A stretch of 32,000 nucleotides of DNA from Acaryochloris marina MBIC11017 (GCF_000018105.1 NC_009925.1:240001-272000); one strand, 5' to 3'. Positions 1,892 through 31,963 are shown, numbered from the stretch's first letter. Notes: generated by a model from the sequence alone, not told the origin. Numbers and translations are program-made.

Positions 1892-3091
1892 CTAACAATC
1901 TCTTTCCAGCTCATCCAAATAATCGGCCCAAGCCTGCATCATTTCCCGCCGTTCTTCAAGAAACTCGGTCCTATTATATGCACGCCCCAAAGGACCCCGA
2001 ACTGCATGTGCAAGTTGATGCTCAATAAGCTCCGGTCGGTAGTGCAATTCTTCAGCAATTAGAGTCCTCGCCATAGCTCTGAACCCATGACCTGACATTT
2101 CATCTTTAGTAATGCCCATCGCCCGTAGTGCAGCCAGCACGGCGTTATTACTCATGTGCCGGGTCATGCTGTTAGCACTGGGAAAAACATATCGACTTGT
2201 GCCATTGCCCGTTATCAACTGCAGAGTCTGCAGTATCTCGATCGCTTGAGTAGCTAAGGGCACTATATGATCGGTCTCTGTTTTGGACACTTGAAACCGC
2301 CATTCTTTAGTATTCCAATTGATTTGTGACCATTGCATCGTCCGAAGCTCACCGGGTCTAACAAACGTTAAAGCCCCCATTCGCATAGCTGCCCGGACCA
2401 CCATCGAACCCCGATAGTCAGCGATCATCCGCATCAGCTCACCAACTCTTTTAGGATCTGTGATAGCAGCTCTATGTTTTGCGTCCACCGGGGCCAGTGC
2501 GCCGCCCAAATCATTGACTACATTGCGATCACATCGACCTGTAGCCACGGCATAACCCAGCACCATCCTCACAATAGACAGACATTTATGAGCCAGTGCA
2601 TTAGCTCCTCTAGCTTCAACAGCCCTAATAACCGCCAACACTTCAGGGGCTGTAATCTCTGTGACTGGCCTCGGCCCTAAGCTTGGATTTAAATCCCTAT
2701 TCAACCGATTCCTTACTATTCCGCGATAACTCTCAGACCAACCAGCATTCTTTTGACTGAACCATTCATCAGCCACAAATTCAAATGTGTTGCCTTGGGC
2801 TAGCTGTAACGATAACTGCAATCTCTTGGCCTCAGTAGTAGGGTTAAGACCCTGAGCCACTAGCCGTCTAGCTTCTAGGTGCTTAGCTCGTGCCTCACCT
2901 AGCCCTAATTCTGGATAAGATCCAATGCTGAACGTGGATTCTTTTCCTTGGATTCTGTACCTGTACTTCCAGTGCTTCCCACCAGCCGGGGTGATTTGCA
3001 AAAACAAGCCACCACCATCAGACAGTCTATAAGAGCCAGTCTTGGGTTTAGCGTTTCGGACCTGTAGATCCGTTAGTCTATTAGTAGCCAT
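1892..3091 (-). CDS. int: site-specific tyrosine recombinase, P4-type integrase (DUF4102 arm-binding N-domain plus phage integrase catalytic domain)
   Basis: 399 aa. The N-terminus LTDLQVRNAKPKTGSYRLSDGGGLFLQITPAGGKHWKYRYR is the classic DUF4102 signature. The catalytic residues are in the expected order: RPGELRTMQW (Arg), HGFRAMARTL (H-x-x-R), HQLAH, and GRAYNRTEF (Tyr). Confidence 0.92.
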   Translation of the reverse strand: MATNRLTDLQVRNAKPKTGSYRLSDGGGLFLQITPAGGKHWKYRYRIQGKESTFSIGSYPELGLGEARAKHLEARRLVAQGLNPTTEAKRLQLSLQLAQGNTFEFVADEWFSQKNAGWSESYRGIVRNRLNRDLNPSLGPRPVTEITAPEVLAVIRAVEARGANALAHKCLSIVRMVLGYAVATGRCDRNVVNDLGGALAPVDAKHRAAITDPKRVGELMRMIADYRGSMVVRAAMRMGALTFVRPGELRTMQWSQINWNTKEWRFQVSKTETDHIVPLATQAIEILQTLQLITGNGTSRYVFPSANSMTRHMSNNAVLAALRAMGITKDEMSGHGFRAMARTLIAEELHYRPELIEHQLAHAVRGPLGRAYNRTEFLEERREMMQAWADYLDELERDC

Positions 3092-11319: not shown

Positions 11320-11811
11320 ATGCAATGCTCTACGCAACAACTAATTGCTCAACCAATTACTCCAGAGACATTTCAACCCTACGGTCAGGTCATATTTGCT
11401 TCCGAAGATGGGGCCGTTTATGGTCCTGACAATGCTCAATTACATTTAGATCAGGGGATTCCCCGGTTCTATATTGTGCGACTAGAAAAATTGGGCCGAC
11501 GGTTTTCTCGCATTACGCGGCATCTAAAATGTACCCAATGTTTAGGGTCTCTAGCTGGTAAACCTTGGCTGATGGCCGTTGCTCCCCCAGGAGATGCTGC
11601 TCAACCTGCCCTAGACCAGATCACGGCATTTCAAATTCCTGGAGACTGCTTTATCAAATTAGAAGTGGGGACCTGGCATGCGGGTCCTCACTTCGATACC
11701 GACTTTATCGATTTCTATAATTTAGAACTGTCTGACACCAATCAAGTTGATCACGATACATGTAACTTGATCAACCAATATAATGTTGAATTCATCATCA
11801 CGCCCATGTGA
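11320..11811 (+). CDS. ureidoglycolate lyase/hydrolase-family (AllA-like) protein
   Basis: 163 aa. The N-terminus AQPITPETFQPYGQVI and the later HLKCTQCLGSLAGKPWLMAVAPPG resemble the ureidoglycolate lyase fold signature. The call is from motif memory. Confidence 0.55.
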   Translation: MQCSTQQLIAQPITPETFQPYGQVIFASEDGAVYGPDNAQLHLDQGIPRFYIVRLEKLGRRFSRITRHLKCTQCLGSLAGKPWLMAVAPPGDAAQPALDQITAFQIPGDCFIKLEVGTWHAGPHFDTDFIDFYNLELSDTNQVDHDTCNLINQYNVEFIITPM

Positions 11812-12749
11812 TTGCCCTTTCTATTCGTTCGCCAGTGAAGTCCCGTCGTCGTCAATCCCTCCGCCGAAAACTAGCCCAAAGTTTGCCTCAAAAGAGCTAC
11901 TTGAAATTTCAAGACGGCAAATTTAGTATTTCTGGGCTGGGGGTTTGGTATACCTATTGGCGCGATCCTTATCATTTATTACTGACGATTCCTTGGCTGG
12001 GCTTTCTGCTAATTCTGGTCGGCGGCTATTTAGTCATTAATGTATTGTTTGCACTGGCCTATCTGGCTGGGGGAGATTGTATCGCCAATGCGACACCGGG
12101 CTCGTTTTGGGATGCCTTCTTCTTCAGTGTGCAAACTTTGGGGGCCATTGGTTATGGAGCCATGCACCCTACCACGGCTTATGCCAATTTTGTGGTTACG
12201 ATTGAGGCCTTTACTAGCATCCTTAGTGTGGCCTTAATTACAGGTTTGGCGTTTGCGAGATTTTCTCGACCGACAACCCGAGTGTTGTTTAGCCATGTTG
12301 CCGTGATTACACCTTACAATGGCGTCCCAACCTTGATGTTCCGCACCGCCAACCAGCGTCGTAACCAGATTCTTGAAGCTGAAATTAATCTCTATTTTCT
12401 GCAAGATGAAATCAGCACTGAGGGAGACGCGATGCGGCATTTGTATAATCTCAATTTGCTTCGTCCTCGAACGCCTTCATTCACCCTGACTTGGACGGTT
12501 ATGCATCCGATTGATGAATCTAGTCCACTCTATGGTGCTACTGCTGAATCCCTTGAACGTACAAAAGCAACCTTAATTGTGACATTGACTGGAATTGATG
12601 ATACAGTGGCTCAATCTTTGCATGCTCGCCATACTTATGGAGCCCTGGATATTATTTGGGATCATAAGTTTATTGATATTTTCCATCAAACTCCAGATGG
12701 GCATCGGTATATTGACTATACCCACTTTCACGATGTCGCTCCCAAGTGA
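11808..12749 (+). CDS. prokaryotic inward-rectifier-type potassium channel (KirBac family)
   Basis: It has two TM helices flanking a pore helix and selectivity filter, FFFSVQTLGAIGYGAM. This matches the KirBac pattern F-F-S-V-E-T-L-x-T-V-G-Y-G as I recall it. A C-terminal beta-rich cytoplasmic domain follows. The GTG start overlaps the previous stop (ATGTGA context), so the exact start is uncertain. Confidence 0.8.
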   Translation: MIALSIRSPVKSRRRQSLRRKLAQSLPQKSYLKFQDGKFSISGLGVWYTYWRDPYHLLLTIPWLGFLLILVGGYLVINVLFALAYLAGGDCIANATPGSFWDAFFFSVQTLGAIGYGAMHPTTAYANFVVTIEAFTSILSVALITGLAFARFSRPTTRVLFSHVAVITPYNGVPTLMFRTANQRRNQILEAEINLYFLQDEISTEGDAMRHLYNLNLLRPRTPSFTLTWTVMHPIDESSPLYGATAESLERTKATLIVTLTGIDDTVAQSLHARHTYGALDIIWDHKFIDIFHQTPDGHRYIDYTHFHDVAPK

Positions 12750-12892: not shown

Positions 12893-15286
12893 TTAATGGT
12901 GGGTTTGCCCAGAATCTAAATGAGACTGCTGTTGGGTCAGTTTTCTTTGAAAAATTAAAGCCTCTTCAAAAGAGGGATCTGCCTGTAAAGCTTTTTGTAA
13001 ATAGGTAGTCGTTTCTTCTAGTTGTTGCAAATGAAAGTGACACATACTGATGTTGTACAGTGTGGCAGGGTCAGTTCCAGTTAATTGGATAGATTTCTCA
13101 AAATAATCTATTGCATCTGCATATTCAGCTAATTGATACAGCACCATACCTAGATAAAAGGCTAGATCTTGATTCTCGCCAATTGGGTAATAATTAGTCC
13201 AAATCTGATGAATACCTTCAATCAAATCCAATCTTATCGCTGGTGTTGCTGTGTCTAACTGATCTAATAGAGAAGAGAAACAGTCCAAGAAAATCTGAGA
13301 ATCCCAATGGTGAGAATGCAAATACCCTATTAGTTGGGATAAAGAAAGCGTCTCCATTCGCTCAGTCGTTATCTGTACTGAACCCTGCCAAGAGTCTGTC
13401 TCAGTTACTGTTGAATAAAACTGGTAACAGAGTTGTGTTTCTTGATATTGAGTGGGGTGCTTGCCAAAGAGGAGGGCTTGGGTATAGAAATCAGGCGTGT
13501 GGCGATGAGGTTGCAAAACCAGCCCGCCTTGCTGCACGGTATATGCTGCTAGGACATGGTAGTTGACAGGTAAAGATACACTTCCCTGTAGTTTAAACAC
13601 GGGCTCACCATAGCCTTGCCAAGCGTTTTGATGGCAATAGCCAAAGTCGCTGGAAATGATCATAAGCCGGTCTTTAGACAGATGGCGGAAGTAATCTAAG
13701 CAGGATAGAGCAACGGTAGGGAATAAGAAATGAGTTGGATGGTTCGTTTCCGAATAGGTGTAGAGAATGTTATTTGCGATCGCATCTTCGTAATAGTCAG
13801 ATTTATCTAATCCCACATCCGAAAATTGCAACGCTATTTGCCCAAGCGCTCGCCAATCTCGTAACTGATGTCCTGCAGGCGCAAACAGTCTTACCCGGCT
13901 TTCCGACAACTTTCCTGATTCAGTGCAGAATGCATCCTGGGGGAGTTTGCTGAGGACCTGGTTCGCTATCAGAATGATTGGGTTATTTAAGGTGTCTGGC
14001 GTCAAAGAATCACCAGATATTTGTAGAGTTAAATCAGTGGGATATTCAATATCAAAATAAGCAATGTCGAGTGTACCTTCTTTGAAAAAGGGTTGCAGAG
14101 AGGGATGCTGCTTCCAAAACTCAATATTTGCTGTTACAAAATCAGTCAACACATAACAAACTGATATTTTCTTCAAAGTGGGCTGTGATAAAAGAGGCAG
14201 TAAATGATGAAGAACCTGATATGCAAAGTGTCCTGAACCAGCACCTAACTCAATGAGATAAATCTTCTGGGATGCGTCAATGGCTTGATAATTCGCTTTA
14301 TGTCTTCTATTAATGGCACAATAATCTCTTAAGCATGAAAAGATAAGCTGTGCATAGTGACTTGCCTTGGACCTTGCTTGTCTCGAAGATTGTTGTTCAC
14401 ATTCTTGGAGAAAAATAGTGTTCCCTTGTTGTAGGTAATACTGTCGTTGTAAATCCCATATCGTAGATTGCGATAACCGTTTCTCCTCTATAGGAAGATG
14501 GCCTAAATTAGAGGGATGGCTTGTAGAAAATGATGATCCTGAGTTTAGTCCTTTAGGTAAGTCGAGGCCATTAGATAATTGATCAACACTAGATTGAGAA
14601 AATTCTTGTTGATGATATTCAGGACTAATCGTGCCCAGCTCTTCACATAATTTTTTCAACAACACTTGAACATTTTCTTGCTTAACCTCATCCATATTCT
14701 GAACAGATGATTTCCATCTTTGATAAGCTTGAGTGGTTATAAATGAGTTTTGCTGCCCAAGCATATTCGTAAGAGAAGACTCAGTTACTCGCTGTAGGAA
14801 TGGGCTCAAGATTGACCATAAATCTTGCTCTAATGGATCCTGTTCTTCGTGTACGCATAAATAGGCCCATATTGTTTTGGAGTAGACTTCTCTGTTCGCC
14901 TGTGTTTGACGAATGGAAGTGAGTAGCCAGCTGTCAGTTTTTAGTAAGGCGTGCTCAGGGCTGAGTTGTTCTAAGCACCTCAGTCCTGAAGAACCAGGGT
15001 CAGAGAGTGAGAGGAGTCCCGAAAATTCCTCGACTAAATCAGGACGTAGAAATAGCTCAAGATATACATCAATAGAATAGTCAAGAAACTGAAGATCAGT
15101 ATCGACTAAAATTTCATCATAGAGATTAAAAAGCTCAGTTGATTTGATCTGTTTGTATTTATCAGGCGAAACTTGAAAACTCATCCGAAGATAGTTGGCT
15201 TTATGGTTTCGTTTATTCAGTTCAAACTTAGGATTCAGTAGTTCGATGGACCGCTTATTTAGGTCAAGAAGAGTAACGTTAGCCAT
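12893..15286 (-). CDS. large SAM-dependent methyltransferase-like protein (MidA/Methyltransf_28-like core) with an unknown N-terminal ~330 aa and C-terminal TPR repeats
   Basis: 797 aa. SAM motif I is IYLIELGAGSGHFAYQVLHHL. The C-terminal TPR-like repeats are AFYLGMVLYQLAEYADAIDYFEKSIQL...YNISMCHFHLQQLEETTTYLQKALQADP. Its ATG lies 3 nt after the stop of the upstream DUF4157 gene (TAA act ATG). Confidence 0.6.
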   Translation of the reverse strand: MANVTLLDLNKRSIELLNPKFELNKRNHKANYLRMSFQVSPDKYKQIKSTELFNLYDEILVDTDLQFLDYSIDVYLELFLRPDLVEEFSGLLSLSDPGSSGLRCLEQLSPEHALLKTDSWLLTSIRQTQANREVYSKTIWAYLCVHEEQDPLEQDLWSILSPFLQRVTESSLTNMLGQQNSFITTQAYQRWKSSVQNMDEVKQENVQVLLKKLCEELGTISPEYHQQEFSQSSVDQLSNGLDLPKGLNSGSSFSTSHPSNLGHLPIEEKRLSQSTIWDLQRQYYLQQGNTIFLQECEQQSSRQARSKASHYAQLIFSCLRDYCAINRRHKANYQAIDASQKIYLIELGAGSGHFAYQVLHHLLPLLSQPTLKKISVCYVLTDFVTANIEFWKQHPSLQPFFKEGTLDIAYFDIEYPTDLTLQISGDSLTPDTLNNPIILIANQVLSKLPQDAFCTESGKLSESRVRLFAPAGHQLRDWRALGQIALQFSDVGLDKSDYYEDAIANNILYTYSETNHPTHFLFPTVALSCLDYFRHLSKDRLMIISSDFGYCHQNAWQGYGEPVFKLQGSVSLPVNYHVLAAYTVQQGGLVLQPHRHTPDFYTQALLFGKHPTQYQETQLCYQFYSTVTETDSWQGSVQITTERMETLSLSQLIGYLHSHHWDSQIFLDCFSSLLDQLDTATPAIRLDLIEGIHQIWTNYYPIGENQDLAFYLGMVLYQLAEYADAIDYFEKSIQLTGTDPATLYNISMCHFHLQQLEETTTYLQKALQADPSFEEALIFQRKLTQQQSHLDSGQTHH

Positions 15287-15289
15287 AGT

Positions 15290-17341
15290 TTATTGAGCCT
15301 CTGCTGCCGCTTTAGCTTTTCTCCAACTTGCTGCAGCCCGACTTTCCTTAATAGTCGCAACTAGTCCTAGAACAATATTTTTTGCCAATGCAGCTCCTTC
15401 CGTAGCAGCTCCGATGACAATTCCTAGTACTCGACCTATAGCAGTTAGAATCGCTTCAACAGAAGTCATTAATGCAACTAAATTGGGGTGCTTTTTATCA
15501 AAATCATCAATATGAAGTAAAGCTCCTCTCACTGCTTTAATGAGTCCACCAGATGCTCCAAGAATTGAGGCGGCAGCTCCTCCTGTGGCAATTGCCATAA
15601 ATGTGTTGAACGCTAAGCTCAGCAATCCTTCCATCGTGATTAAATTATTGAACCATTTTCCATATTTTTGGATTTTGTCCTCATCTTTTTCTTTCCCTTT
15701 TTTATGAGCTAGCCATGCTCGGCCAAACTTAGAAAGCCCAATCACAATTTGTATACCACCACCAATAGCTGCTGGAACACCAATAATTGCCCCGGCTCCA
15801 CTTCCAATAGCTGGTACAGTCAGAGCTAGAATAATTGCCCCTCCAGCTAAATGGCCAATCCCTTCAGCCCCTAATCGCCACTTATTGGTTTTTGCATTAG
15901 GCTTTGCTGCTTTGAAAAGCCCCCCAATTTTTCCAAAAATCGTCGAGGTATCTGCATTATCTGCTGACTCAGCGTTCTCCTGGCCCAAATCCTCCCCCAC
16001 TGCATCAATAAATCCTTCCCAAGGAATTCGGGAATTGAGTAAACCAGTTTCATCTTTATTGGCTTCTTCACGCCAGCTTGCTGCATCTCTCTCTGCCAGG
16101 GCGTATCCAACCCAAAATGTATGCAGGCTTTGTAAAGACATCTTATTTTCTGCTGCGGTCTCTGTATCTGCAGCTTGTCCTTCTACAAGATAGTAGAATC
16201 TTTGAGTGTCTGGATTGAAGTACCATTGCAATCCATGAATTTGATCTTTGAGTTTGTAGAGTTCTTCATCTTGATTCCAACTATCGGCTAACTCCCGCTG
16301 AATAGAAGGGGATGGATTAGAAGAAATAGAGTCTATAACTGTGGATTTGGGCTGCCGTTTCTCAACCAAAGCATATTGAGGCTGAGCAGGGACTTGTTGA
16401 AAAAGATGCTCCGTCTTCTGAAGCCTGCCATTGGTGGAAGAAGTTTGATGGATGCGTTTATCAGTTATGTATGGAATAACGTTGTTCTTTGCCTGAGAGA
16501 CATGGTTTTGTTTCTCCGACTGCCTCCTCAGGAAGACATCATTGGATTTCCAACACAGTTCCATTGACTTGGATGGTGTTGGCTCCTGATTTTGTTGGGG
16601 TTCAGCTGCAGTTGATTGGGGGTGTAGTGATGGCTGGATAGATTTGCCATTCTGCTGAACGACATGAGTCAGTTCATGGGCGAGGAGTTCCTGGCCTGCT
16701 CGGCTACTCGGTTGGTAGGCTCCTTGGCGAAAGAAAAGATCTTGGCCTGTGGTAAAGGCACGGGCTTGAATAGATTCGTTGAGTTGATGCGCTTTGCGAT
16801 CGCTATGGACTCGCACGCCACCAAAATTTGCTCCAAAAGCTTGTTCCATTGGACCGCGGATCTTATCGTCCAGGGGACGACCACCCCCTCTAGATTGGTT
16901 AATGGCATGTTCTAGGTTGGGGTTCGCATCTTTAGGGCCATTGTGTCGTTGAATAATGGGTTTCATCATCAGCTCATCTTGTTCAGGTAAATCCTGACGT
17001 TGAGCAGATGATGGAGGATTTAGGCCCTTGGGAGAATGCATTTGGGTGACGACCTGCTTGGCCACGCGGTCGGCCTCTTGTTCATATTTATCTCCCGGTG
17101 CTCCAATGGTCAGTTTGGGTTGAATGGGGTTTCCATTGGTTAAGCGTGGTGGCCCCATCTGCACCATACTGGTATCTAATCTCTGAAATTTCTCCAGTCG
17201 TTCTGCATGTTCTGCTAGACCTTCAGCATTCGACTTAGGTTCTACGATGGGGGATGGGGATGTCGGTTGAGTAACGGGTGGGGTAGAAGAAGGGACAGCC
17301 TCTGTTTTGGCTTGCTGTGACTGAGTTTGATGCGTCTGCAC
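15290..17341 (-). CDS. eCIS cargo candidate E3: shared N-terminal leader, DUF4157 (HExxH) domain, Gly/Ala-rich multi-helix membrane C-terminal module
   Basis: GTG start with a GGGGGA SD 6 nt upstream. The DUF4157 hallmarks are IQPKLTIGAPGDKYEQEADRVAKQVV, RGGGRPLDDKIRGPMEQAFGANFGGVRVHSD and LLAHELTHVVQQ. The last 196 aa (15290..15880) are hydrophobic and rich in GxxxG/A motifs. Confidence 0.85.
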   Translation of the reverse strand: MQTHQTQSQQAKTEAVPSSTPPVTQPTSPSPIVEPKSNAEGLAEHAERLEKFQRLDTSMVQMGPPRLTNGNPIQPKLTIGAPGDKYEQEADRVAKQVVTQMHSPKGLNPPSSAQRQDLPEQDELMMKPIIQRHNGPKDANPNLEHAINQSRGGGRPLDDKIRGPMEQAFGANFGGVRVHSDRKAHQLNESIQARAFTTGQDLFFRQGAYQPSSRAGQELLAHELTHVVQQNGKSIQPSLHPQSTAAEPQQNQEPTPSKSMELCWKSNDVFLRRQSEKQNHVSQAKNNVIPYITDKRIHQTSSTNGRLQKTEHLFQQVPAQPQYALVEKRQPKSTVIDSISSNPSPSIQRELADSWNQDEELYKLKDQIHGLQWYFNPDTQRFYYLVEGQAADTETAAENKMSLQSLHTFWVGYALAERDAASWREEANKDETGLLNSRIPWEGFIDAVGEDLGQENAESADNADTSTIFGKIGGLFKAAKPNAKTNKWRLGAEGIGHLAGGAIILALTVPAIGSGAGAIIGVPAAIGGGIQIVIGLSKFGRAWLAHKKGKEKDEDKIQKYGKWFNNLITMEGLLSLAFNTFMAIATGGAAASILGASGGLIKAVRGALLHIDDFDKKHPNLVALMTSVEAILTAIGRVLGIVIGAATEGAALAKNIVLGLVATIKESRAAASWRKAKAAAEAQ

Positions 17342-17479
17342 TGATATTCCCCCAGAATCCGTACGATATCATCGCCGAAGGAATTATCTCACTTCAAAAG
17401 GGTCTCAGGACCTCGCCATTGGGCTAATATTTCTGCCGTTTTCAAAGGCTACCCAACCTCTAAAAATAATTTATGATCA

Positions 17480-25104: not shown

Positions 25105-26415
25105 TCAAATGATCTGGACTGTGGGGCCCACAAAGCTACCAAACGTGGGGCTGGTTACTTCTGGGTCGATGTTTAATGAGCTCTCTGCCCCGTCAATTTG
25201 GATGCGGACAAAATATTCTCCTGGTTTTACATCGTCCACTTCAACTGTGATGGACTGATTATCAGTCGTTCGGTGAGACGCTTCAAATAAATAGGCGGCT
25301 GGATGTTCAACCGTTCGTTCATTCAGGATGAGCGTGACCTGTTGCAGGCTAGCGATGGTAACGTCCGTTGTGATTTGAATCGCAGCAGACCGAAGTTCTT
25401 CTTCTTGGCCTTGGGTAATGGTGACGGCTAGGTCAATGATGGTGGGTCGCAACAAAAAGGGAGAAGCATTAGAGACCATTCCGACTTGGTGGTTTGGAGC
25501 CACTAAGGCAGCTCTGGCAGAACGCCAAGCTCCAGGTCGGTTTGGTGTGGGGGTTTGCGATTGATGGACCACCTGCAAACTTTGGACTCCAGCCCGGAGG
25601 CTATGGGTGGGCAAACGAACCAGAGGCAGCAGCAGCTCTCCTTCACTCACCTGGGAAGGAGTAACTTCCACGGCCCCAATCCGGATACCGGTATGATTTC
25701 CCTGCAGCCGTTTGCCCCGAATTAATAGGGTAGAATCGGCCACAATTGGCTCAAATTTACCAGTCATTGACGCAATCTCCGTGATCAGGGGCTGGCCGGA
25801 GAAGGGGGCAACAGCTAAGCCTCGACTGGCCACAGGCAGGGCTTTTTGGGCTGGAGTCTGGCCTTCGATCATGATCACTGTACTGCGGTAGGCCATCGAC
25901 AGGGCATAGGGGGTCTGAAAGAAGACCGACCAGACTTTGGAGAGATCTTCTAAGGACATATCCATAGGTTTAAAGTTAATCTCTTCCACCTGCTGCCATA
26001 GATCAGATTCAGCTAGGTATTCGTAATTAGAGTCGGAAAGGGTCTCTTGAATCATCTCCTCCCGCACCACCTGGGCATCGCTAAGGGAGCGGACGACGCT
26101 ACCTAATAAGCGTTGGGGTTCTAGCTCGACTTCGTTACCATAGACGCTAATCATATAGTGTAGGTCTAGGGCAGTGCGTGATCGCTTAGCCGTATCGCTA
26201 TGACGATGCCGACCTCGATGATCGGTATTGTTCCAGGCTGTATTTAGGGCGGTTTGATAGAGGTAAATATTGACCCCAGAAACAGGTGTGCCCTTACCGA
26301 TGTCGGCGGGACGCAGGGTGGTGACCCTGGCTCCTTCTACATCCTCTTGAATGGCCGCTTGCAAGGTCCGTTGGAGGACCGCAGTTACGGTTGCGATCGC
26401 AAGAAAGTTACTCAT
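25105..26415 (-). CDS. long DUF4255 (Pvc16_N-like) protein with C-terminal beta-sandwich (IPT/Ig-like) extension
   Basis: The N-terminus MSNFLAIATVTAVLQRTLQAAIQ, with VNIYLYQT and HYMISVYG, is the DUF4255 pattern. The C-terminal half has IPT-like strings (LLIRGKRLQGNHTGIRIGAVEVTPSQV and YFVRIQIDGAES). Confidence 0.8.
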   Translation of the reverse strand: MSNFLAIATVTAVLQRTLQAAIQEDVEGARVTTLRPADIGKGTPVSGVNIYLYQTALNTAWNNTDHRGRHRHSDTAKRSRTALDLHYMISVYGNEVELEPQRLLGSVVRSLSDAQVVREEMIQETLSDSNYEYLAESDLWQQVEEINFKPMDMSLEDLSKVWSVFFQTPYALSMAYRSTVIMIEGQTPAQKALPVASRGLAVAPFSGQPLITEIASMTGKFEPIVADSTLLIRGKRLQGNHTGIRIGAVEVTPSQVSEGELLLPLVRLPTHSLRAGVQSLQVVHQSQTPTPNRPGAWRSARAALVAPNHQVGMVSNASPFLLRPTIIDLAVTITQGQEEELRSAAIQITTDVTIASLQQVTLILNERTVEHPAAYLFEASHRTTDNQSITVEVDDVKPGEYFVRIQIDGAESSLNIDPEVTSPTFGSFVGPTVQII

Positions 26416-26425
26416 TCACCTAACC

Positions 26426-27103
26426 TTAGGGGGTAACCAAACCCAGCTTCAGGGCTTTGACAATCGCCTGGGAGCGACTTTTAACCTCAAGCTTTTCAAA
26501 CACGGCGGTTAGGTGGGCTTTCACCGTTGCGATCGTAATGTGTAAGTGATTTGCGATCGCTTGATTTGATGCCCCCTGAACCAGCCAATGGAGCACCTGC
26601 TTTTCCCGCGCCGTCAGATGGAGGGTCTGCTCCGATTGAACAGCCCGACCTTCATAGAAATGAAAAGATCGGAAAAATCCAGTTGCCGCATCCGGTGGCA
26701 AAAACACCTCATTCTTCAGCACTGTTTGAATGGCTTGATGCAAATTCATAGCTAACTGAGACTTAAACACATAACCATCAGCCCCCGCTCGCATGGCCCG
26801 AAACACCCATTCATCTTCCTGATGGGCTGAAATCACGAGAATCTTGCCGGTGTAGTTCTGCTGTCTGAGATGTTGTAGAGCGGCGACCCCGTCATCTTTC
26901 GGCAGTTCCAAGTCTAGAAACAGCAAGGTTGGATGTTGTTCCAACGCCAAACTAATCGCCTGATCGGCTGAGGCTGCCTCACCCACAATATGAAACTGGA
27001 ACGATTCTTGGGCTTGGTAAAACCCCAGTAATGTTCGCAATCCCTGGCGAAAGGTGGGCTGATCATCCGCTAAAACGACGGATAGCGGCTGAGTACTTCT
27101 CAT
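26426..27103 (-). CDS. NarL/FixJ-family response regulator (REC plus LuxR-type HTH)
   Basis: The REC domain shows VVLADDQPTFRQGL, an acceptor Asp context (LLFLDLELPKDDG) and a conserved Lys (YVFKS). The C-terminal LuxR HTH is LTAREKQVLHWLVQGASNQAIANHLHITIATVKAHLTAVFEKLEV. The ATG at 27103 has a GGGGGA SD 7 nt upstream, and the ORF-track TTG is at 27109. Confidence 0.9.
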   Translation of the reverse strand: MRSTQPLSVVLADDQPTFRQGLRTLLGFYQAQESFQFHIVGEAASADQAISLALEQHPTLLFLDLELPKDDGVAALQHLRQQNYTGKILVISAHQEDEWVFRAMRAGADGYVFKSQLAMNLHQAIQTVLKNEVFLPPDAATGFFRSFHFYEGRAVQSEQTLHLTAREKQVLHWLVQGASNQAIANHLHITIATVKAHLTAVFEKLEVKSRSQAIVKALKLGLVTP

Positions 27104-27123
27104 GGTCAAATCCCCCGATAATT

Positions 27124-28284
27124 CTAATTGTTGGACTCTTGTGGCAAACTAATTGAAAATTGAGCACCGCCTTCTGGCAAATTAGATGCCCACAGCCGAC
27201 CCCGATGACGACAAACGATTTGCTGTGCGATCGCTAATCCTAAACCTCGCCCTCCTTGCCGTCGTGAGTAATAAGGGGAAAACATGCAGCACAAATCTTC
27301 CGATGATAATCCCGGTCCTTGATCCCTGACCTCGATCAAGATTTCGGTTTGGAATCGCTGCCAAGTGAGCGTAATCTGACCTCCTTGGGGGCTAAAATGC
27401 AGAGCATTACTCAGTAGATTGTCGAAAACTTGCAGCATTTGCCAACGATCTATCCAAACGACCTCAGACGTTTGTGGATAGCAAATCTCCATGCCCTGAC
27501 TTTGCAGGTGGGGTTGAAGAGCGCGGATATTCTCCGCCACCAAATCATGTAAATTACATGGTTCAACAAGGGGGGAGTCCTCCTCTTCGTCATCCACCAA
27601 ATCCTGGAGATGATGATGGAGTTGTTTAACGGCCTGTTGCAACGGTACTAGATAGTTCTGACCGTTTTGGGGGGTTGTTTTAACTTGCAACATGTCAGCA
27701 TAAAGGGTGATGAGTGACAATGGCGTCCCCAATTGATGAGTGGTCTGGTGAAGATGCTGTTGTTTAGCTAAGAGCGCGGCTCGCTGTTGATTAAAGGCCA
27801 AATGCAGATCAAAATAGTCACTCATTAACAGAATTTGTCGTTCTATCCATTGCCGTTCCGACGTCGTTAACGGAGACTGGGAGACAAATAAAAGGTACTG
27901 CCCCTGATGCTGACAAAGGCAGCTACTGTAGACTTGCCAGTCTTGATAAACCCAGTGTTGTAAACCGGGTTGAGTAGATACAAGAGCAAATTGAGAAAAT
28001 AGATTCGGGGATGCTAGGAGATCCTTGAGAGAAGTGCGGTTGTGAGCAGCCGTGAGTATATCCTGCGGTACACAACCATCTACCTCCATCCCAATCTTTA
28101 GCTGATGCCCCAACCCCCGCCGTAAAATCCAAGCGATGGGGAGGGATAAATAATCAATAATTAAATCTAAAAAATCCTGGCAATGCTGATTTAAATCGAT
28201 GGTTGAGAAGGATTGGCGACGGTCTGGAAGCTTTTCCAGACCAAAAGACCCATTGCTTAGAGTTATGGGTTGATCAACCTGCAT
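27124..28284 (-). CDS. soluble sensor histidine kinase (N-terminal cytoplasmic sensor domain, HisKA, HATPase_c)
   Basis: The H-box is TTHQLGTPLSLITLYADML. Other motifs are the N-box (FDNLLSNALHF), G1 (VRDQGPGL) and G2 (GGRGLGLAIA). I see no convincing TM helix in the first ~170 aa, which may be GAF/PAS-like, though that part is inference. Confidence 0.88.
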   Translation of the reverse strand: MQVDQPITLSNGSFGLEKLPDRRQSFSTIDLNQHCQDFLDLIIDYLSLPIAWILRRGLGHQLKIGMEVDGCVPQDILTAAHNRTSLKDLLASPNLFSQFALVSTQPGLQHWVYQDWQVYSSCLCQHQGQYLLFVSQSPLTTSERQWIERQILLMSDYFDLHLAFNQQRAALLAKQQHLHQTTHQLGTPLSLITLYADMLQVKTTPQNGQNYLVPLQQAVKQLHHHLQDLVDDEEEDSPLVEPCNLHDLVAENIRALQPHLQSQGMEICYPQTSEVVWIDRWQMLQVFDNLLSNALHFSPQGGQITLTWQRFQTEILIEVRDQGPGLSSEDLCCMFSPYYSRRQGGRGLGLAIAQQIVCRHRGRLWASNLPEGGAQFSISLPQESNN

Positions 28285-28786
28285 AGCCGCCCCCCATCCC
28301 CATCCAGTAATTATAAAAAATAATAAAACGAGTGAGCGCTTGTTTTATGATTGAAAATTTCACAATTGAAGCAAGGCTGGAGTGAGTTTTCTCCCCCATC
28401 ACATTTCCACACTTAGTAATAAATCTCATAACCAAACCACTCGCACTCATAAATCAGCCTACGGCTTTCTATTCAAATTCCCCTCGGTATTTAGATTCTT
28501 TTAAGTCCCTTAAAAATGAGGCTAATCCTCCTGGTAAATATTTAAAAATATGAGGATCTTGCTTTCGCATGAAACCAATACAAAAGCGTTTGGAGAGTAG
28601 AATACCCAGTTATAGACTTTTTGGAATCAGTTTATTTTTTATTCTAAAAAGGATAAAATTCGTGGCTTAACGACTCCTTCAGATAATCGTGGGAGATTGT
28701 TTATTGACAAAGTCCTCCATAGCAATAAATCATTAGAGGTTATGGCATGGATAGGTCATTTGGGGGCTTAACTTTTTTATTTTGGC

Positions 28787-28827
28787 ATGAGGTAAAACTT
28801 AAAATGCTTCAGTTTTACCTCACTTTT
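28787..28827 (+). promoter_or_regulatory. conserved box, copy A, with a perfect 12-bp hairpin in the divergent control region of the eCIS locus
   Basis: TGAGGTAAAACT (28788..28799) is the exact reverse complement of AGTTTTACCTCA (28811..28822), with an 11-nt loop and a following CTTTTT. The 27-mer at 28801..28827 recurs at 22509..22535 with 25 of 27 identities. Confidence 0.55.
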
Positions 28828-29053
28828 TCCCAGAGATTAGTAAAGAAATATTTAGTTTTTTGATTTTTCCCAACTGGCATCGATAAAAGTCTTATTTACT
28901 TGAGTCTTTCAATATTTCAGGAAAAAAACTTGTGCTAGGTGGCTATTTATAAATGGTGCAGCCTAAGGAAGACAATAATTCCGACCTAAGTCTAATAACG
29001 ATATATTTCGTAACTCCTTACTGTAGAGCTGTGCTCCCTCATGGCGCTCATTT

Positions 29054-29602
29054 ATGATTCCTGCTGTCACTCAAACCTTGGCAGAAATCCTGTCTGACGG
29101 AACGTCTTCCATCACGAAGGACCAAATATTTTTCAACCACCCCAAAGTGGAACAGGAGATGGCAGTTGGGGTAAACCTTTACTGTTATGACGTTCGTGAA
29201 AGCTATCCTTGCCTCCCAACCGGTTTACCTGGGGAAGAAGGGTCTGAAGCAAAACAGACCAAGCCCTTAAAGTGGTTTGATATTTCCTTCTTAGTTAGTG
29301 CCTGGGATTTTACTGCTTTAGGAGAGCAACATTTGCTCTCAGAAGTCCTGATGCTTTTATCCCGTTATTCTTTCTTACCCCTCGAATATTTATCTCCAGT
29401 TTTGCAAGGCTACGGCCGTTTGCCCATGAGAGTTTCGACTGGACGATTAGGAGACCCGATCGAACTCTGGCATGCCTTGGGTGCTCCCCTGCGTCCGGCG
29501 CTACATGTCATCGTTACCATTCCGTTTCTTATCTCTGATCGAGCGTCTACTAATCCCAACCCCAGTAGGAATCATTGGTGTGAAAGCACGCCTATAAAGT
29601 AG
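29054..29602 (+). CDS. short DUF4255 (Pvc16_N-like) protein, first gene of the structural operon
   Basis: 182 aa. MIPAVTQTLAEILSDG..., VNLYCYDVRES, and WFDISFLVSAWD follow the DUF4255 pattern of an N-terminal helix, a LYDIRE-like motif, and a later aromatic/acidic strand. Confidence 0.8.
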   Translation: MIPAVTQTLAEILSDGTSSITKDQIFFNHPKVEQEMAVGVNLYCYDVRESYPCLPTGLPGEEGSEAKQTKPLKWFDISFLVSAWDFTALGEQHLLSEVLMLLSRYSFLPLEYLSPVLQGYGRLPMRVSTGRLGDPIELWHALGAPLRPALHVIVTIPFLISDRASTNPNPSRNHWCESTPIK

Positions 29603-29642
29603 TTCAAATTCTTACCCCGTATTGAATGGAGGAAGCTAGTCA

Positions 29643-31343
29643 ATGGCCCTGGATTATTTTGCCCCTGGCGTTTACGTCGAAGAAGTTGACCGAGGGAGTC
29701 GCCCCATCGAAGGTGTCAGTCTCAGTGTGGCCGGATTTATCGGCTTTACTGAAGACGTACGCGGAGATGCTGAATTGTTCCAGCCGATGATGATCACCAA
29801 TTGGGATCAATATCGGGAATTCTTTGCCAAACCTGGTTCAGACGGGTTTACGGATTATGATGCCTACTTACCTTTCGCCGTTCAAGGCTGGTTTCTGAAT
29901 GGGGGTGGGCGCTGTTGGGTAACGAGTATTGGCACCCAATTACCGGGCTCTGCTGCTCCAGATCCAGAAGAAGCCGGAACCTTATTACCCACCTTTAGTG
30001 GCCGACCTTCCTTAAAATTTAGCCTTAAACTACCTGAAGATTCAGGGGATGCTCCTGCACTCCCCTCTGGTGATGCCCGCATACAAGTGGCTATCTTTGA
30101 GAGCACGCCCAAGCCAGTGGACGACGATGAAGAGCCCCCTCTCAACTCTGGTGAATTCTTTACCGTTGTCGTGCGGCAAGGAGAAGAACAGCTGGAGATG
30201 TATGAACATCTGACCATGAATCCTGACGTTGACACGGCTGTTGCAGACTACGTCGTTACAGCTTTGGAAGAGTCTGAATTCGTTGCAGTTGCGAACCTCT
30301 CCCAATCTGGCCAAGCCCTATCTCGTCGCCCAGCCAATGGCGCTTTTGAAATAACCCCTCCACCCCAAATCTCCACCCCTGAAAGATTCCCTCGTGATCT
30401 GCAAGGCCAGCGGGATGACCGAACTGGGATGCAAGGGATATTCGAGATTGATGAAGTGGCGATGATTGCCTGTCCTGACCTAATGCGTGCCTACCAAAAT
30501 GGTCTGCTCGATCTGGACCAGGTTCATGGGGTCATGGAAATGATGGTCAGTCTATGTGAGAATTCCTTCCCTGGACCTGCTTACCGGATGGCTGTCCTAG
30601 ATCCCCCTCCTGTCAAAATTGGTAAAAATGACAACACCGCGGTTCCCCCAGAGCAACAGCGCCCCCAGCATGTCGCTCAGTGGCTCAATGAGTTTAATCG
30701 CCGCTCGATGTTTGGGGCCATCTATTATCCCTGGATCAAAGTCGCAAATCCACGCAATGGTGGACGCCCCATCATGGTGCCACCCTGCGGGCATATGATG
30801 GGAATTTGGTGCCGGACAGATGAGTCCAGAGGAGTGTTTAAAGCGCCTGCAAATGATACCCCAAGAGGCGTTATTGGCTTAGCCTACGAAACCAATATGC
30901 GGGAGCAGGAACTCTTAAACCCCAAAGGGATCAACTGTATTCGCAACTTTGCCAATTACAATCGTGGCTTTAAAGTTTGGGGAGCACGCACTCTGGTGGA
31001 ACCAGATAACGTCCAATGGCGTTATATCAGTGTCCGTCGTCTGATCAGCTATATCGAAAAATCCATTGAAATTGGCACCCAGTGGGTCGTTTTTGAACCC
31101 AATGATCAGGACCTATGGGCACGGATTACTCGAACCGTTAGTAACTTCCTAGAGCGGCTTTGGCGCGAAGGAGCATTGTTCGGAGCCTCTCCCTCCGAAG
31201 CATTCTATGTCAAATGCGATGGTGAATTAAATACCAATGAAACCATTATGTTAGGTCGGCTCTATGTCGAAGTGGGCGTCTGTCCAGTACGACCAGCAGA
31301 ATTCGTGATCTTCCGCATTAGCCAGTGGGCTCCGAATCAATAA
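29643..31343 (+). CDS. contractile tail sheath protein (phage tail sheath family; Afp2-4/Cis2-like)
   Basis: A GGAGGA SD lies upstream. The N-terminus YFAPGVYVEEVDRGSRPIEGVSLSVAGFIGFTE and the C-terminal region GINCIRNFANYNRGFKVWGARTL...WRYISVRRL are hallmark sheath motifs. Confidence 0.92.
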   Translation: MALDYFAPGVYVEEVDRGSRPIEGVSLSVAGFIGFTEDVRGDAELFQPMMITNWDQYREFFAKPGSDGFTDYDAYLPFAVQGWFLNGGGRCWVTSIGTQLPGSAAPDPEEAGTLLPTFSGRPSLKFSLKLPEDSGDAPALPSGDARIQVAIFESTPKPVDDDEEPPLNSGEFFTVVVRQGEEQLEMYEHLTMNPDVDTAVADYVVTALEESEFVAVANLSQSGQALSRRPANGAFEITPPPQISTPERFPRDLQGQRDDRTGMQGIFEIDEVAMIACPDLMRAYQNGLLDLDQVHGVMEMMVSLCENSFPGPAYRMAVLDPPPVKIGKNDNTAVPPEQQRPQHVAQWLNEFNRRSMFGAIYYPWIKVANPRNGGRPIMVPPCGHMMGIWCRTDESRGVFKAPANDTPRGVIGLAYETNMREQELLNPKGINCIRNFANYNRGFKVWGARTLVEPDNVQWRYISVRRLISYIEKSIEIGTQWVVFEPNDQDLWARITRTVSNFLERLWREGALFGASPSEAFYVKCDGELNTNETIMLGRLYVEVGVCPVRPAEFVIFRISQWAPNQ

Positions 31344-31346
31344 ATA

Positions 31347-31387
31347 CTTTAGGGCAGAAAGCGGTGCTCCTGCTTTCTGCCCTAAAG
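31347..31387 (+). terminator. perfect 16-bp stem-loop immediately after the sheath gene (attenuator or mRNA-stabilising hairpin, with no U-tract)
   Basis: CTTTAGGGCAGAAAGC (31347..31362) and GCTTTCTGCCCTAAAG (31372..31387) are exact reverse complements separated by a 9-nt loop. The hairpin starts 4 nt after the sheath stop. It is followed by CATATCC rather than a T-run. Confidence 0.55.
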
Positions 31388-31462
31388 CATATCCATTGGG
31401 ATTGATAGCCCCTTTGAAGCTCCATCGTTAATTTCATCGATCACTGAACAAGGAGAATAGCT

Positions 31463-31963
31463 GTGCCGAGTGAACTGAATAAACCCATTGCCCCCAGCAG
31501 TTTCTATCTAGAGATTTCTGGTGTTGCAGATGGCGAAAAATCTGTATTCAAAAGCGTAAATATTCCCGATTACTCGCCTAAAGTCCAGGGGGGACAACAG
31601 GCAGTGGGGACCACGAAAGGGGGAAAAACGGTTTGGCAAGTCAACTCCGCAGGTTTTGAAGGGTTATTCTCCTTCGACTGCATATGCATTGCCAGTGGAG
31701 ATGGCGATAGTACCAGTATGAATATGTATAAATGGTTTGAGCAATGTCTGCCCTCCTCCAGTGGTGGCAAAGGCAAGTGGGCCGATAACCAGAAAGAAGG
31801 CAGTATTACGGCCTACAACACAGATGGTGAAGAAGTGGCCAAATGGCAGTTTAGTGAAGCTTGGCCGTCTAAGTACAAATGTGCAGACTTAGATGTTACT
31901 GCCGATAGCTATATAGAAGAAACCTACACCATCACTTGCGAGAAGTTTAACCGGACAAAATAG
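31463..31963 (+). CDS. contractile tail tube protein (T4 gp19-like; Afp1/Cis1-like)
   Basis: GTG start with an AAGGAGA SD about 7 nt upstream. 166 aa. SFYLEISGV...FKSVNIPDYS...GSITAYNTDGEEVAKWQFSEAWPSKY...ETYTITCEKF fits the gp19-like tube pattern, and the gene sits directly after the sheath gene. Confidence 0.85.
   Translation: MPSELNKPIAPSSFYLEISGVADGEKSVFKSVNIPDYSPKVQGGQQAVGTTKGGKTVWQVNSAGFEGLFSFDCICIASGDGDSTSMNMYKWFEQCLPSSSGGKGKWADNQKEGSITAYNTDGEEVAKWQFSEAWPSKYKCADLDVTADSYIEETYTITCEKFNRTK

Follow-up and report, generated by a model that had tools for sequence, protein, structure and literature searches.

The presence of contractile sheath and tube genes in the chromosome of Acaryochloris marina MBIC11017 raises the question of what kind of machine they encode and where the rest of it lies. 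In the 32,000 nt stretch of DNA that was analysed (the window), the relevant genes are AM1_0257 to AM1_0272, as established by identity of the encoded proteins with those of MBIC11017, whose locus tags are used here. Strain MBIC10699 has 3 SNPs relative to the window, and Rfam and tRNA scans of the window returned no matches. A sequence-only reading had claimed that this is a contractile injection system (CIS) locus, and Pfam domains for the sheath, the tube, DUF4255, the AAA+ ATPase, and DUF4157 were all found. There is little doubt that the stretch holds locus I of a phage-tail-like CIS, a system whose genes are split between at least three separate sites on the chromosome.

The same element appears, as two loci, in the catalogue of phage-like protein translocation structures (PLTS) by Sarris et al. 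2014, where the entry is 'Acaryochloris marina: AM1_6406-6403, AM1_0270-0276'. Multi-locus entries are likewise given there for Cyanothece PCC 7822 and Gloeobacter violaceus. Neither the ATPase, cap, regulator, and cargo arm (AM1_0257-0269) nor the Vgr locus (AM1_5907-5911) is included in the catalogue, and it does not list any regulation. The CIS, known here from its genes alone, is real, expressed, and of a known kind, listed since 2014.

The contractile components are on the plus strand. AM1_0270 (29054-29602) encodes a short DUF4255 cap-type protein (Pfam Pvc16_N/DUF4255, 1e-25), which in a comparison with PDB matches the Streptomyces CIS cap Cis16 (9gts, 2e-14). The contractile sheath, AM1_0271 (29643-31343; Phage_sheath_1C, 1e-18; Phage_sheath_1, 6e-11; PF04984 and PF17482), consists of one 566-aa protein. 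The inner tube protein, AM1_0272 (31463-31963; Pfam T4 gp19, PF06841, 3e-12; NCBIfam TIGR02241 and CIS1_fam matches each under cutoff), is the first of three paralogs, the other two, also of gp19 type (PF06841), being encoded just to the right of the window. The earlier calls on this strand, a short DUF4255 protein, a sheath, and a gp19-like tube, for which a Pfam check had been advised, are all three supported by Pfam. The tube had also been described as running off the window, but its ORF stops inside, and it is the operon that continues beyond. In the 10 kb examined to the right, this operon continues with the second and third tube genes, two chaperone-like genes, a DUF6760 gene, and a kinase-like/PBP gene. 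A Nif11 gene is also present there, and then come the unrelated genes for a peroxidase, a DUF1643 protein, and a glycosyltransferase. The kinase-like/PBP gene was considered as a further unrelated neighbour, and this was rejected because homologs 33-38% identical to it sit in other cyanobacterial CIS loci, often beside a histidine kinase and response regulator (HK-RR) pair.

Between the plus-strand arm and the divergent minus-strand arm is an AT-rich control region (28451-29053, GC 0.38). Conserved blocks are present within it at about 28809-28856 and 28981-29053, as identified by alignment with strains that have diverged to a coding dS of roughly 1 or above.

The minus-strand arm is headed by a called gene for a 58-aa ORF (28274-28450), which by counting of the locus tags is probably AM1_0269. 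This is followed, all on the minus strand, by a soluble histidine kinase, AM1_0268 (27124-28284; Pfam HisKA and HATPase_c), whose sensor domain, some 170 aa long, has no match in Pfam, NCBIfam, or PDB, and by a NarL/LuxR-type response regulator, AM1_0267 (26426-27103; Pfam Response_reg and GerE; exact match to ABW25353.1). The next gene, AM1_0266 (25105-26415), encodes the long DUF4255 protein (Pvc16_N, 1e-44, with Ig-like/TIG domains), and its arrangement adjoining the ATPase gene is kept in other genomes. Two small ORFs then encode proteins of 82 aa (24847-25095) and 76 aa (24604-24834), neither of which has a match in Pfam, NCBIfam, or PDB. The former is found only in Acaryochloris loci, while the latter, adjoining the ATPase gene, is kept in this CIS family, with tblastn matches in 11 loci, always between the long cap gene and the AAA gene. 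AM1_0263 (22603-24597) is an AAA+ ATPase of the Afp15/Pvc15 type that carries a winged-helix domain at its N terminus (AAA, 5e-25; WHD, 1e-11); its single AAA domain matches the D2 type of p97/Cdc48, with ClpA matched only at 0.004. Gene calls and Pfam agree with the minus-strand assignments of the sequence-only reading (HK, RR, long DUF4255, two small ORFs, AAA+ ATPase, and a methyltransferase-TPR protein), and its intercistronic gaps of 20, 10, 9, 12, and 6 nt are reproduced exactly with the called gene starts. Two of the features that it held to be unusual are found elsewhere: the arm made up of the long cap gene, small ORF, and AAA gene diverges from the sheath arm in Calothrix 336/3 too, and the HK-RR pair at the head of the assembly arm recurs in several cyanobacterial CIS loci.

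The putative cargo genes are also on the minus strand. The first (20350-22437) encodes a DUF4157/eCIS_core protein with an HExxH motif (Pfam, 8e-31); from the gene call its start is probably at 22368, which would give 672 aa. Its C-terminal domain is of low GC (0.34-0.35) and without a family match, and in a related strain a different cargo protein is encoded at this position. The second is a protein of 543 aa (17480-19111; ABW25345, AM1_0259 by accession offset), and the third, AM1_0258 (15290-17341), is again a DUF4157/eCIS_core protein with HExxH (Pfam eCIS_core, 6e-33), the C-terminal part of which is glycine-rich and hydrophobic. These had been described as three large leader/HExxH proteins. 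The leader is indeed present in all three, but this N-terminal segment, some 75 aa long, is all that the 543-aa protein has in common with the other two; it contains neither DUF4157 nor HExxH and has no Pfam or PDB family match. None of the cargo C-terminal domains has a match in Pfam, NCBIfam, or PDB. The last gene of the cargo arm, AM1_0257 (12893-15286), starts 3 nt past the stop codon of the preceding gene and encodes a Methyltransf_28 and TPR protein (Pfam; exact match to ABW25343.1). Its membership of the CIS is uncertain, because it has no counterpart in the other CIS loci compared.

An intact IS1-family element (19168-20062, minus strand), absent from the sequence-only reading, lies among the cargo genes. 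It carries InsA-like and InsB-like ORFs (Pfam DDE_Tnp_IS1 and Zn_ribbon_InsA) and 20-nt terminal inverted repeats, and is flanked by a direct repeat, AAGGTAGCGAG, that represents the target duplication. The element occupies the spacer between two cargo genes and interrupts no ORF. Some cargo genes may be disturbed in their expression by it; neither AM1_0259 nor AM1_0262 is in the list of significantly regulated genes from the published RNA-seq study. That IS activity broke up a formerly contiguous cluster was considered and rejected, on account of the clean target duplication in the spacer and since the truncated layout is common to long-diverged lineages.

The baseplate, spike, and tape-measure genes had been predicted to lie just right of the window, but extension by 10 kb in that direction found none there. 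In the window and this right-hand 10 kb there are no Pfam matches for the baseplate genes gp25, gp6/J-like, or gp7/P2_I-like, and no VgrG/PAAR spike or tube initiator. Relatives with full gene sets additionally encode a Cis5-like tube, a presumed tape measure of about 2000 aa (2078 to >2362 aa, positioned after the chaperones), a baseplate protein of 732 aa, CIS_tube, gp25, and Tail_P2_I. By published annotation, two distant chromosomal loci of A. marina supply such functions: AM1_6402-6406 are gp25/baseplate-wedge genes, with AM1_6406 annotated as GPW/gp25 family, and AM1_5907-5911 are a Vgr-containing module, with AM1_5911 annotated as 'Rhs element Vgr protein'. The content of both loci is taken from this annotation together with the matching gene order in relatives, from which the predicted baseplate components are present in A. 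marina but unlinked to the window. For A. marina, neither a tape-measure nor a PAAR gene was identified, and AM1_5909 is by its position a tape-measure candidate.

Homology searches gave no further placement. With the Altericista 732-aa baseplate protein as query, no Acaryochloris protein is named among the best 120 matches, and the 20 homolog clusters from the baseplate search are from other organisms only. The Altericista protein of about 2000 aa, the presumed tape measure, is too divergent, its search returning 3 proteins including the query. There was no Acaryochloris plasmid in tblastn against PLSDB, only distant relatives in IMG/VR, and no Acaryochloris among the best 80 of >599 matches in a scan of a genome collection, from which the known positive Calothrix 336/3 is absent too.

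The dispersed layout could be explained by decay, in which deletion removed the baseplate, spike, and tape-measure genes from a CIS cluster whose product then ceased to assemble. The operon does stop abruptly after DUF6760, at the point where relatives have the Cis5-like tube and the protein of about 2000 aa, and there is an IS element among the cargo genes. That insertion is a simple target duplication in a spacer, however, with no ORF broken. Nor is the layout peculiar to this genome: a sheath arm ending after the chaperones, paired with an HK-RR pair and both DUF4255 genes, is present in two other lineages, with sheath identities of 86% and 83%, and the same truncated layout is retained in lineages where the ATPase is only 53% identical. 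In comparison with a strain at dS 0.9-2.8, the dN/dS of the 11 genes tested is 0.005-0.10, including 0.016 for the sheath, 0.010 for the tube, 0.075 for the ATPase, 0.055 for the 82-aa ORF, and 0.054 for the 76-aa ORF. This shows that the CIS genes of the window are under strong purifying selection and, given these values, are maintained. That all 11 are at or below 0.10 at near-saturated dS is not what would be seen in a remnant.

The genes are also expressed. In the part of the published RNA-seq data that is used here, values are given as log2(WL/FR), so that a negative value denotes higher expression in low-intensity far-red than in high white light. The values are -1.99 for AM1_0257, -2.07 for AM1_0258, -0.98 for the ATPase AM1_0263, -2.35 for the long DUF4255 gene AM1_0266, -2.64 for the RR AM1_0267, -2.92 for the HK AM1_0268, -1.70 for the sheath AM1_0271, -2.17 for the tube AM1_0272, and -1.92 for AM1_0275. 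At the distant loci they range from -1.47 to -2.29 (AM1_6402-6406) and from -0.90 to -2.55 (AM1_5907-5911), such that in these data all three loci go up together in low far-red light. The MU13 orthologs of these genes rank among the 35 most induced, and the MU13 ortholog of AM1_0269 is induced. Co-induction with the distant gp25 and Vgr loci argues against a remnant as well, and decay is a very unlikely explanation.

It is extremely unlikely that the genes belong to a prophage tail module or an R-type tailocin, as opposed to an Afp/PVC-like CIS. The sheath and gp19 tube domains are phage-derived and there is a P4-type integrase at 1892-3091, but the integrase is 10 kb off, behind ordinary cellular genes. 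No capsid, portal, terminase, or lysis genes were found by Pfam among the CIS genes, the main ORFs (≥80 aa) in the rest of the window, and the right-hand 10 kb, in keeping with the earlier view that this is not a prophage. The Afp15-type AAA+ ATPase, DUF4255, and DUF4157 are marks of a CIS and not of a phage or pyocin, and the pyocin sheath is matched weakly (3e-09), as against 2e-114 for the Streptomyces CIS. A canonical membrane-anchored T6SS, likewise doubted before, would share the contractile sheath and tube, and a structural relative (haloarchaeal 9ezm) acts by cell contact, but this reading has almost no likelihood, given one 566-aa sheath protein in place of a TssB/TssC pair, a single-AAA p97-like ATPase and not ClpV, a gp19-type and not Hcp tube, and no TssJLM-type genes seen by Pfam in the window and right flank.

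For a CIS of this kind, Afp, PVC, MAC, AlgoCIS, and tCIS had been offered as examples; the nearest solved relative, by sheath match, is instead the cytoplasmic CIS of Streptomyces coelicolor and S. venezuelae (CIS-Sc; dbeCIS subclade IId; PDB 8BKY, 8BL4, 9GTP, 9GTS). Its sheath (8bky/9gtp) gives the best full-length match to AM1_0271 (2e-114, residues 4-563), its cap Cis16 is matched by AM1_0270, its cargo proteins likewise have a similar N-terminus in common, and in this cyanobacterial family the 732-aa baseplate protein has 35-37% identity to Streptomyces and Deinococcus homologs. The Streptomyces system differs in having one contiguous locus (sco4242-4260), in which Cis16 is the only cap and a typical tape-measure gene is lacking, whereas A. 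marina, as read from gene content, has at least three loci, two DUF4255 proteins, DUF4157-type cargo, and a dedicated HK-RR pair.

The thylakoid-anchored tCIS of Anabaena sp. PCC 7120 (all3313-all3327; PDB 7B5H/7B5I) is alike in its cyanobacterial host, in the DUF4157 proteins that are its putative cargo, and in having two DUF4255 caps, Cis16A and Cis16B, so that the duplication seen in A. marina is not the oddity it had been taken for. Its cluster is contiguous, unlike that of A. marina, only the C-terminal domain of its sheath All3325 matches AM1_0271 (residues 375-561, 3e-50), and neither A. marina DUF4255 protein matches the Anabaena cap chains at E <0.01. The tCIS anchoring features are the Cis13 transmembrane domain, reported in filamentous cyanobacteria only, the Cis12 extension, and the Cis19 crown, all of them from baseplate-locus genes, which are outside the window. 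Afp (Serratia) and PVC (Photorhabdus) have in common with A. marina the sheath, gp19-like tube, DUF4255 cap (Afp16/Pvc16), Afp15/Pvc15-type AAA+ ATPase, and the placement of cargo genes at one end. They differ in that their sheaths match by the C-terminal domain only (~1e-44 to 1e-46), that two to three sheath paralogs are present in one operon, and that the locus described here is not linked to any tail-fibre or baseplate genes.

If the system works as solved CIS do, polymerization of the tube would start from the spike and baseplate as its nucleus, and the sheath would polymerize around the tube, with one or both DUF4255 proteins capping the distal end. The ATPase may help in assembly or in loading of cargo, the shared N-terminal leader/DUF4157 region would direct the cargo into the particle, and contraction would expel the tube together with the cargo. 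The local HK-RR pair is a likely transcriptional switch, and it may regulate all three loci. More tentatively, and on balance doubtfully, the pair would be a light-responsive master switch of AM1_0257-0278, AM1_5907-5911, and AM1_6402-6406, and the machine would act inside the producing cell. Such a machine may, by analogy with that of Streptomyces, serve to lyse the cell or release cargo in a way that is coupled to the light regime. If true, this would be a light-controlled multi-locus CIS regulon in a unicellular chlorophyll-d cyanobacterium, and such regulation is not described in the literature consulted.

The finding correctly identifies a kind of system that was known and had been catalogued before. 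CIS clusters are present, according to one study, in ~40% of sequenced cyanobacterial genomes, yet among these only the Anabaena thylakoid-anchored type has been the subject of structural work, and the A. marina element represents a different branch, nearer to the Streptomyces cytoplasmic CIS. It indicates that a working CIS can be dispersed over several loci, and methods of detection that depend upon clustering might miss such systems or score them as incomplete. The co-induction of the dispersed parts in low far-red light, as seen in the RNA-seq results drawn on here, provides a testable handle on the role of CIS in phototrophs.

The window comprises AM1_0257 to AM1_0272 of MBIC11017, and 3 of 12,358 bases differ between it and chromosome AP026075.1 of Acaryochloris marina MBIC10699, which carries the sheath protein. 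By Pfam, the plus strand encodes the short DUF4255 protein (Pvc16_N, 1e-25; 29054-29602, equal to AM1_0270), the sheath (29643-31343, equal to ABW25357.1) and a gp19 tube protein (31463-31963). The minus strand encodes the HK (27124-28284), a LuxR-type RR (26426-27103, an exact match to ABW25353.1, AM1_0267), the long DUF4255 protein (Pvc16_N and TIG; 25105-26415), an ATPase (AAA and WHD; 22603-24597, equal to ABW25349.1), two eCIS_core/DUF4157 cargo proteins (20350-22437 and 15290-17341) and a Methyltransf_28 and TPR protein (12893-15286), with ORFs of 82 and 76 aa between the long DUF4255 and ATPase genes. All gene calls of the sequence-only reading, on both strands, are thereby upheld, and its intercistronic gaps of 20, 10, 9, 12 and 6 nt are reproduced with the called gene starts.

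On the Pfam evidence the observations of that reading are sound, with two corrections. It described three leader/HExxH proteins; the leader is indeed common to all three, but the 543-aa protein is without DUF4157/HExxH, and its likeness to the other two is confined to the N-terminal leader of ~75 aa. It also left unreported an intact IS1-family element (19168-20062) in the spacer separating cargo genes, with 20-nt terminal inverted repeats at its ends and an 11-bp direct repeat, AAGGTAGCGAG, flanking it. In related strains, several contigs assembled from short reads end close to this element. The 695-aa DUF4157 protein has a C-terminal domain in which GC falls to 0.34-0.35 (20350-22000), and in a related strain its position holds a different cargo (1063 aa, eCIS_core and DUF3990) with a similar N-terminus, which suggests that cargo domains have been exchanged between strains.

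No CIS-related genes were found in the window left of 12893, where there are a P4-type integrase, two DUF1400 genes, XdhC, an M23 peptidase, an IS4/5 transposase, EamA, a ureidoglycolate-lyase-like gene and a Kir-type channel. The last, a bacterial inward-rectifier-type (Kir-like) potassium channel gene (IRK_C, Ion_trans_2; 11808-12749), is directly left of the cargo arm. The P4-type tyrosine integrase (Arm-DNA-bind_3, Phage_int_M, Phage_integrase; 1892-3091) is 10 kb from the CIS genes, with ordinary cellular genes intervening, and there is no tRNA gene to accompany it anywhere in the window.

Baseplate, spike and tape-measure genes had been predicted just right of the window. Extension rightward by 10 kb shows none, and this central prediction therefore fails. 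Instead, the sheath operon runs on through two further gp19 tubes, a paralogous pair of chaperone-like proteins (139 and 110 aa), an overlapping 46-aa DUF6760 ORF and a 731-aa kinase-like/PBP protein with a PstS-like domain. A 69-aa Nif11 protein is on the opposite strand; it and the kinase-like protein together occupy 14330-16782 of L001, the locus record reaching right of the window. Genes for a peroxidase, a DUF1643 protein and a glycosyltransferase lie beyond. The 110-aa chaperone-like and DUF6760 ORFs overlap in the -1 frame (L001 13843-14300, equivalent to window 33485-33942), and the latter, which is without a canonical start codon, has faint similarity to P2 GpE. The arrangement is reminiscent of E/E+E', the frameshift pair of phage P2; the overlap shows no canonical slippery heptamer. 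The kinase-like/PBP and Nif11 proteins are not chance neighbours: their homologs are also present in the CIS loci of further cyanobacteria (L047 2592-6583; L058 8081-11788). In two CIS loci the kinase-like gene directly follows an HK-RR pair homologous to that in the window, making an HK-RR-kinase trio.

In Calothrix sp. 336/3 and Altericista, DUF6760 is followed by a small ORF, a Cis5-like gp19 protein, a protein of 2078 to >2362 aa, presumed to be the tape measure, and CIS_tube. On a separate arm, the same two species have gp25, a 732-aa baseplate protein, Tail_P2_I, a ~450-aa protein, a Cache/cNMP sensor and WD40. The Cis16-long/small ORF/AAA arm of Calothrix likewise diverges from its sheath arm, so the divergent layout is a family trait. 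Two further lineages (sheath identity 86% and 83%) repeat the A. marina layout, with HK, RR and long DUF4255 opposite short DUF4255, sheath, three tubes and chaperone(s), and unrelated genes next. The uncoupled sheath-tube-cap module is therefore of long standing and has been kept. A two-protein cap, Cis16A and Cis16B, is known from Anabaena. The divergent units, paired DUF4255 genes and embedded regulators, initially considered unusual, are common in the family.

A published record of the locus already exists: Sarris et al. 2014 listed, among phage-tail-like translocation structures, 'Acaryochloris marina: AM1_6406-6403, AM1_0270-0276', together with other cyanobacterial multi-locus examples. 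RNA-seq of MBIC11017 itself, in the supplementary tables of an mBio 2024 paper, sets high white light against low far-red light. There, AM1_0257, 0258, 0263, 0266, 0267, 0268, 0271, 0272 and 0275 are induced in far-red (log2(WL/FR) -0.98 to -2.92), as are AM1_6402-6406, of which 6406 is annotated GPW/gp25, and AM1_5907-5911, of which 5911 is annotated 'Rhs element Vgr protein'. From order and annotation, AM1_5907-5911 would fit the run of small ORF, Cis5-like tube, large protein, CIS_tube and Vgr in the relatives. In strain MU13, orthologs of the sheath operon, RR, HK and AM1_6406/6403 rank within the 35 most induced genes. Also among the strongest low-far-red-induced genes in the published RNA-seq tables, in both A. 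marina strains, are AM1_3684-3690 and AM1_3478-3485, outside the window, with 'Phage tail collar' genes and a hypothetical run; these may be additional CIS genes, for accessory proteins or fibres.

The CIS of the window locus is genuine, expressed and of a known kind. Its sheath matches those of Streptomyces cytoplasmic CIS (8bky/9gtp) over the full length at 2e-114, followed by haloarchaeal CIS (9ezm), whereas the Anabaena All3325, Pvc2/3, Afp2/3 and AlgoCIS sheaths match in the C-terminal domain only (~1e-44 to 3e-50) and the pyocin sheath at 3e-09. The short DUF4255 protein has a match in Cis16, the cap protein of Streptomyces, and the ATPase is p97/Cdc48-like, not ClpV. Against one related strain, with coding identity of ~80% and dS of 0.9-2.8, dN/dS is 0.005-0.019 for the tubes, 0.016 for the sheath, 0.03 for the RR, 0.05 for the two small ORFs, 0.07 for the long DUF4255, 0.075 for the ATPase, 0.09 for the HK and 0.10 for the short DUF4255. 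Between the divergent HK and short DUF4255 genes, blocks 28809-28856 and 28981-29053 are almost invariant between strains with near-saturated synonymous sites; the second reaches the start codon and holds a small hairpin (29028-29045). Both blocks, which match no Rfam family, are candidate regulator-binding or 5' leader elements.

What is documented here is which component classes are present, that they are under selection and that they are co-expressed. Beyond this, analogy with solved CIS suggests that the sheath and tube would assemble on a baseplate and spike whose genes lie elsewhere and be capped by the DUF4255 protein(s), that the ATPase may assist assembly or cargo loading, and that cargo would be directed by the leader; the local HK/RR pair may be in control. 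The three-locus organisation, the joint induction in low far-red light and the relatedness to the cytoplasmic CIS of Streptomyces add modestly to the interest of this system.
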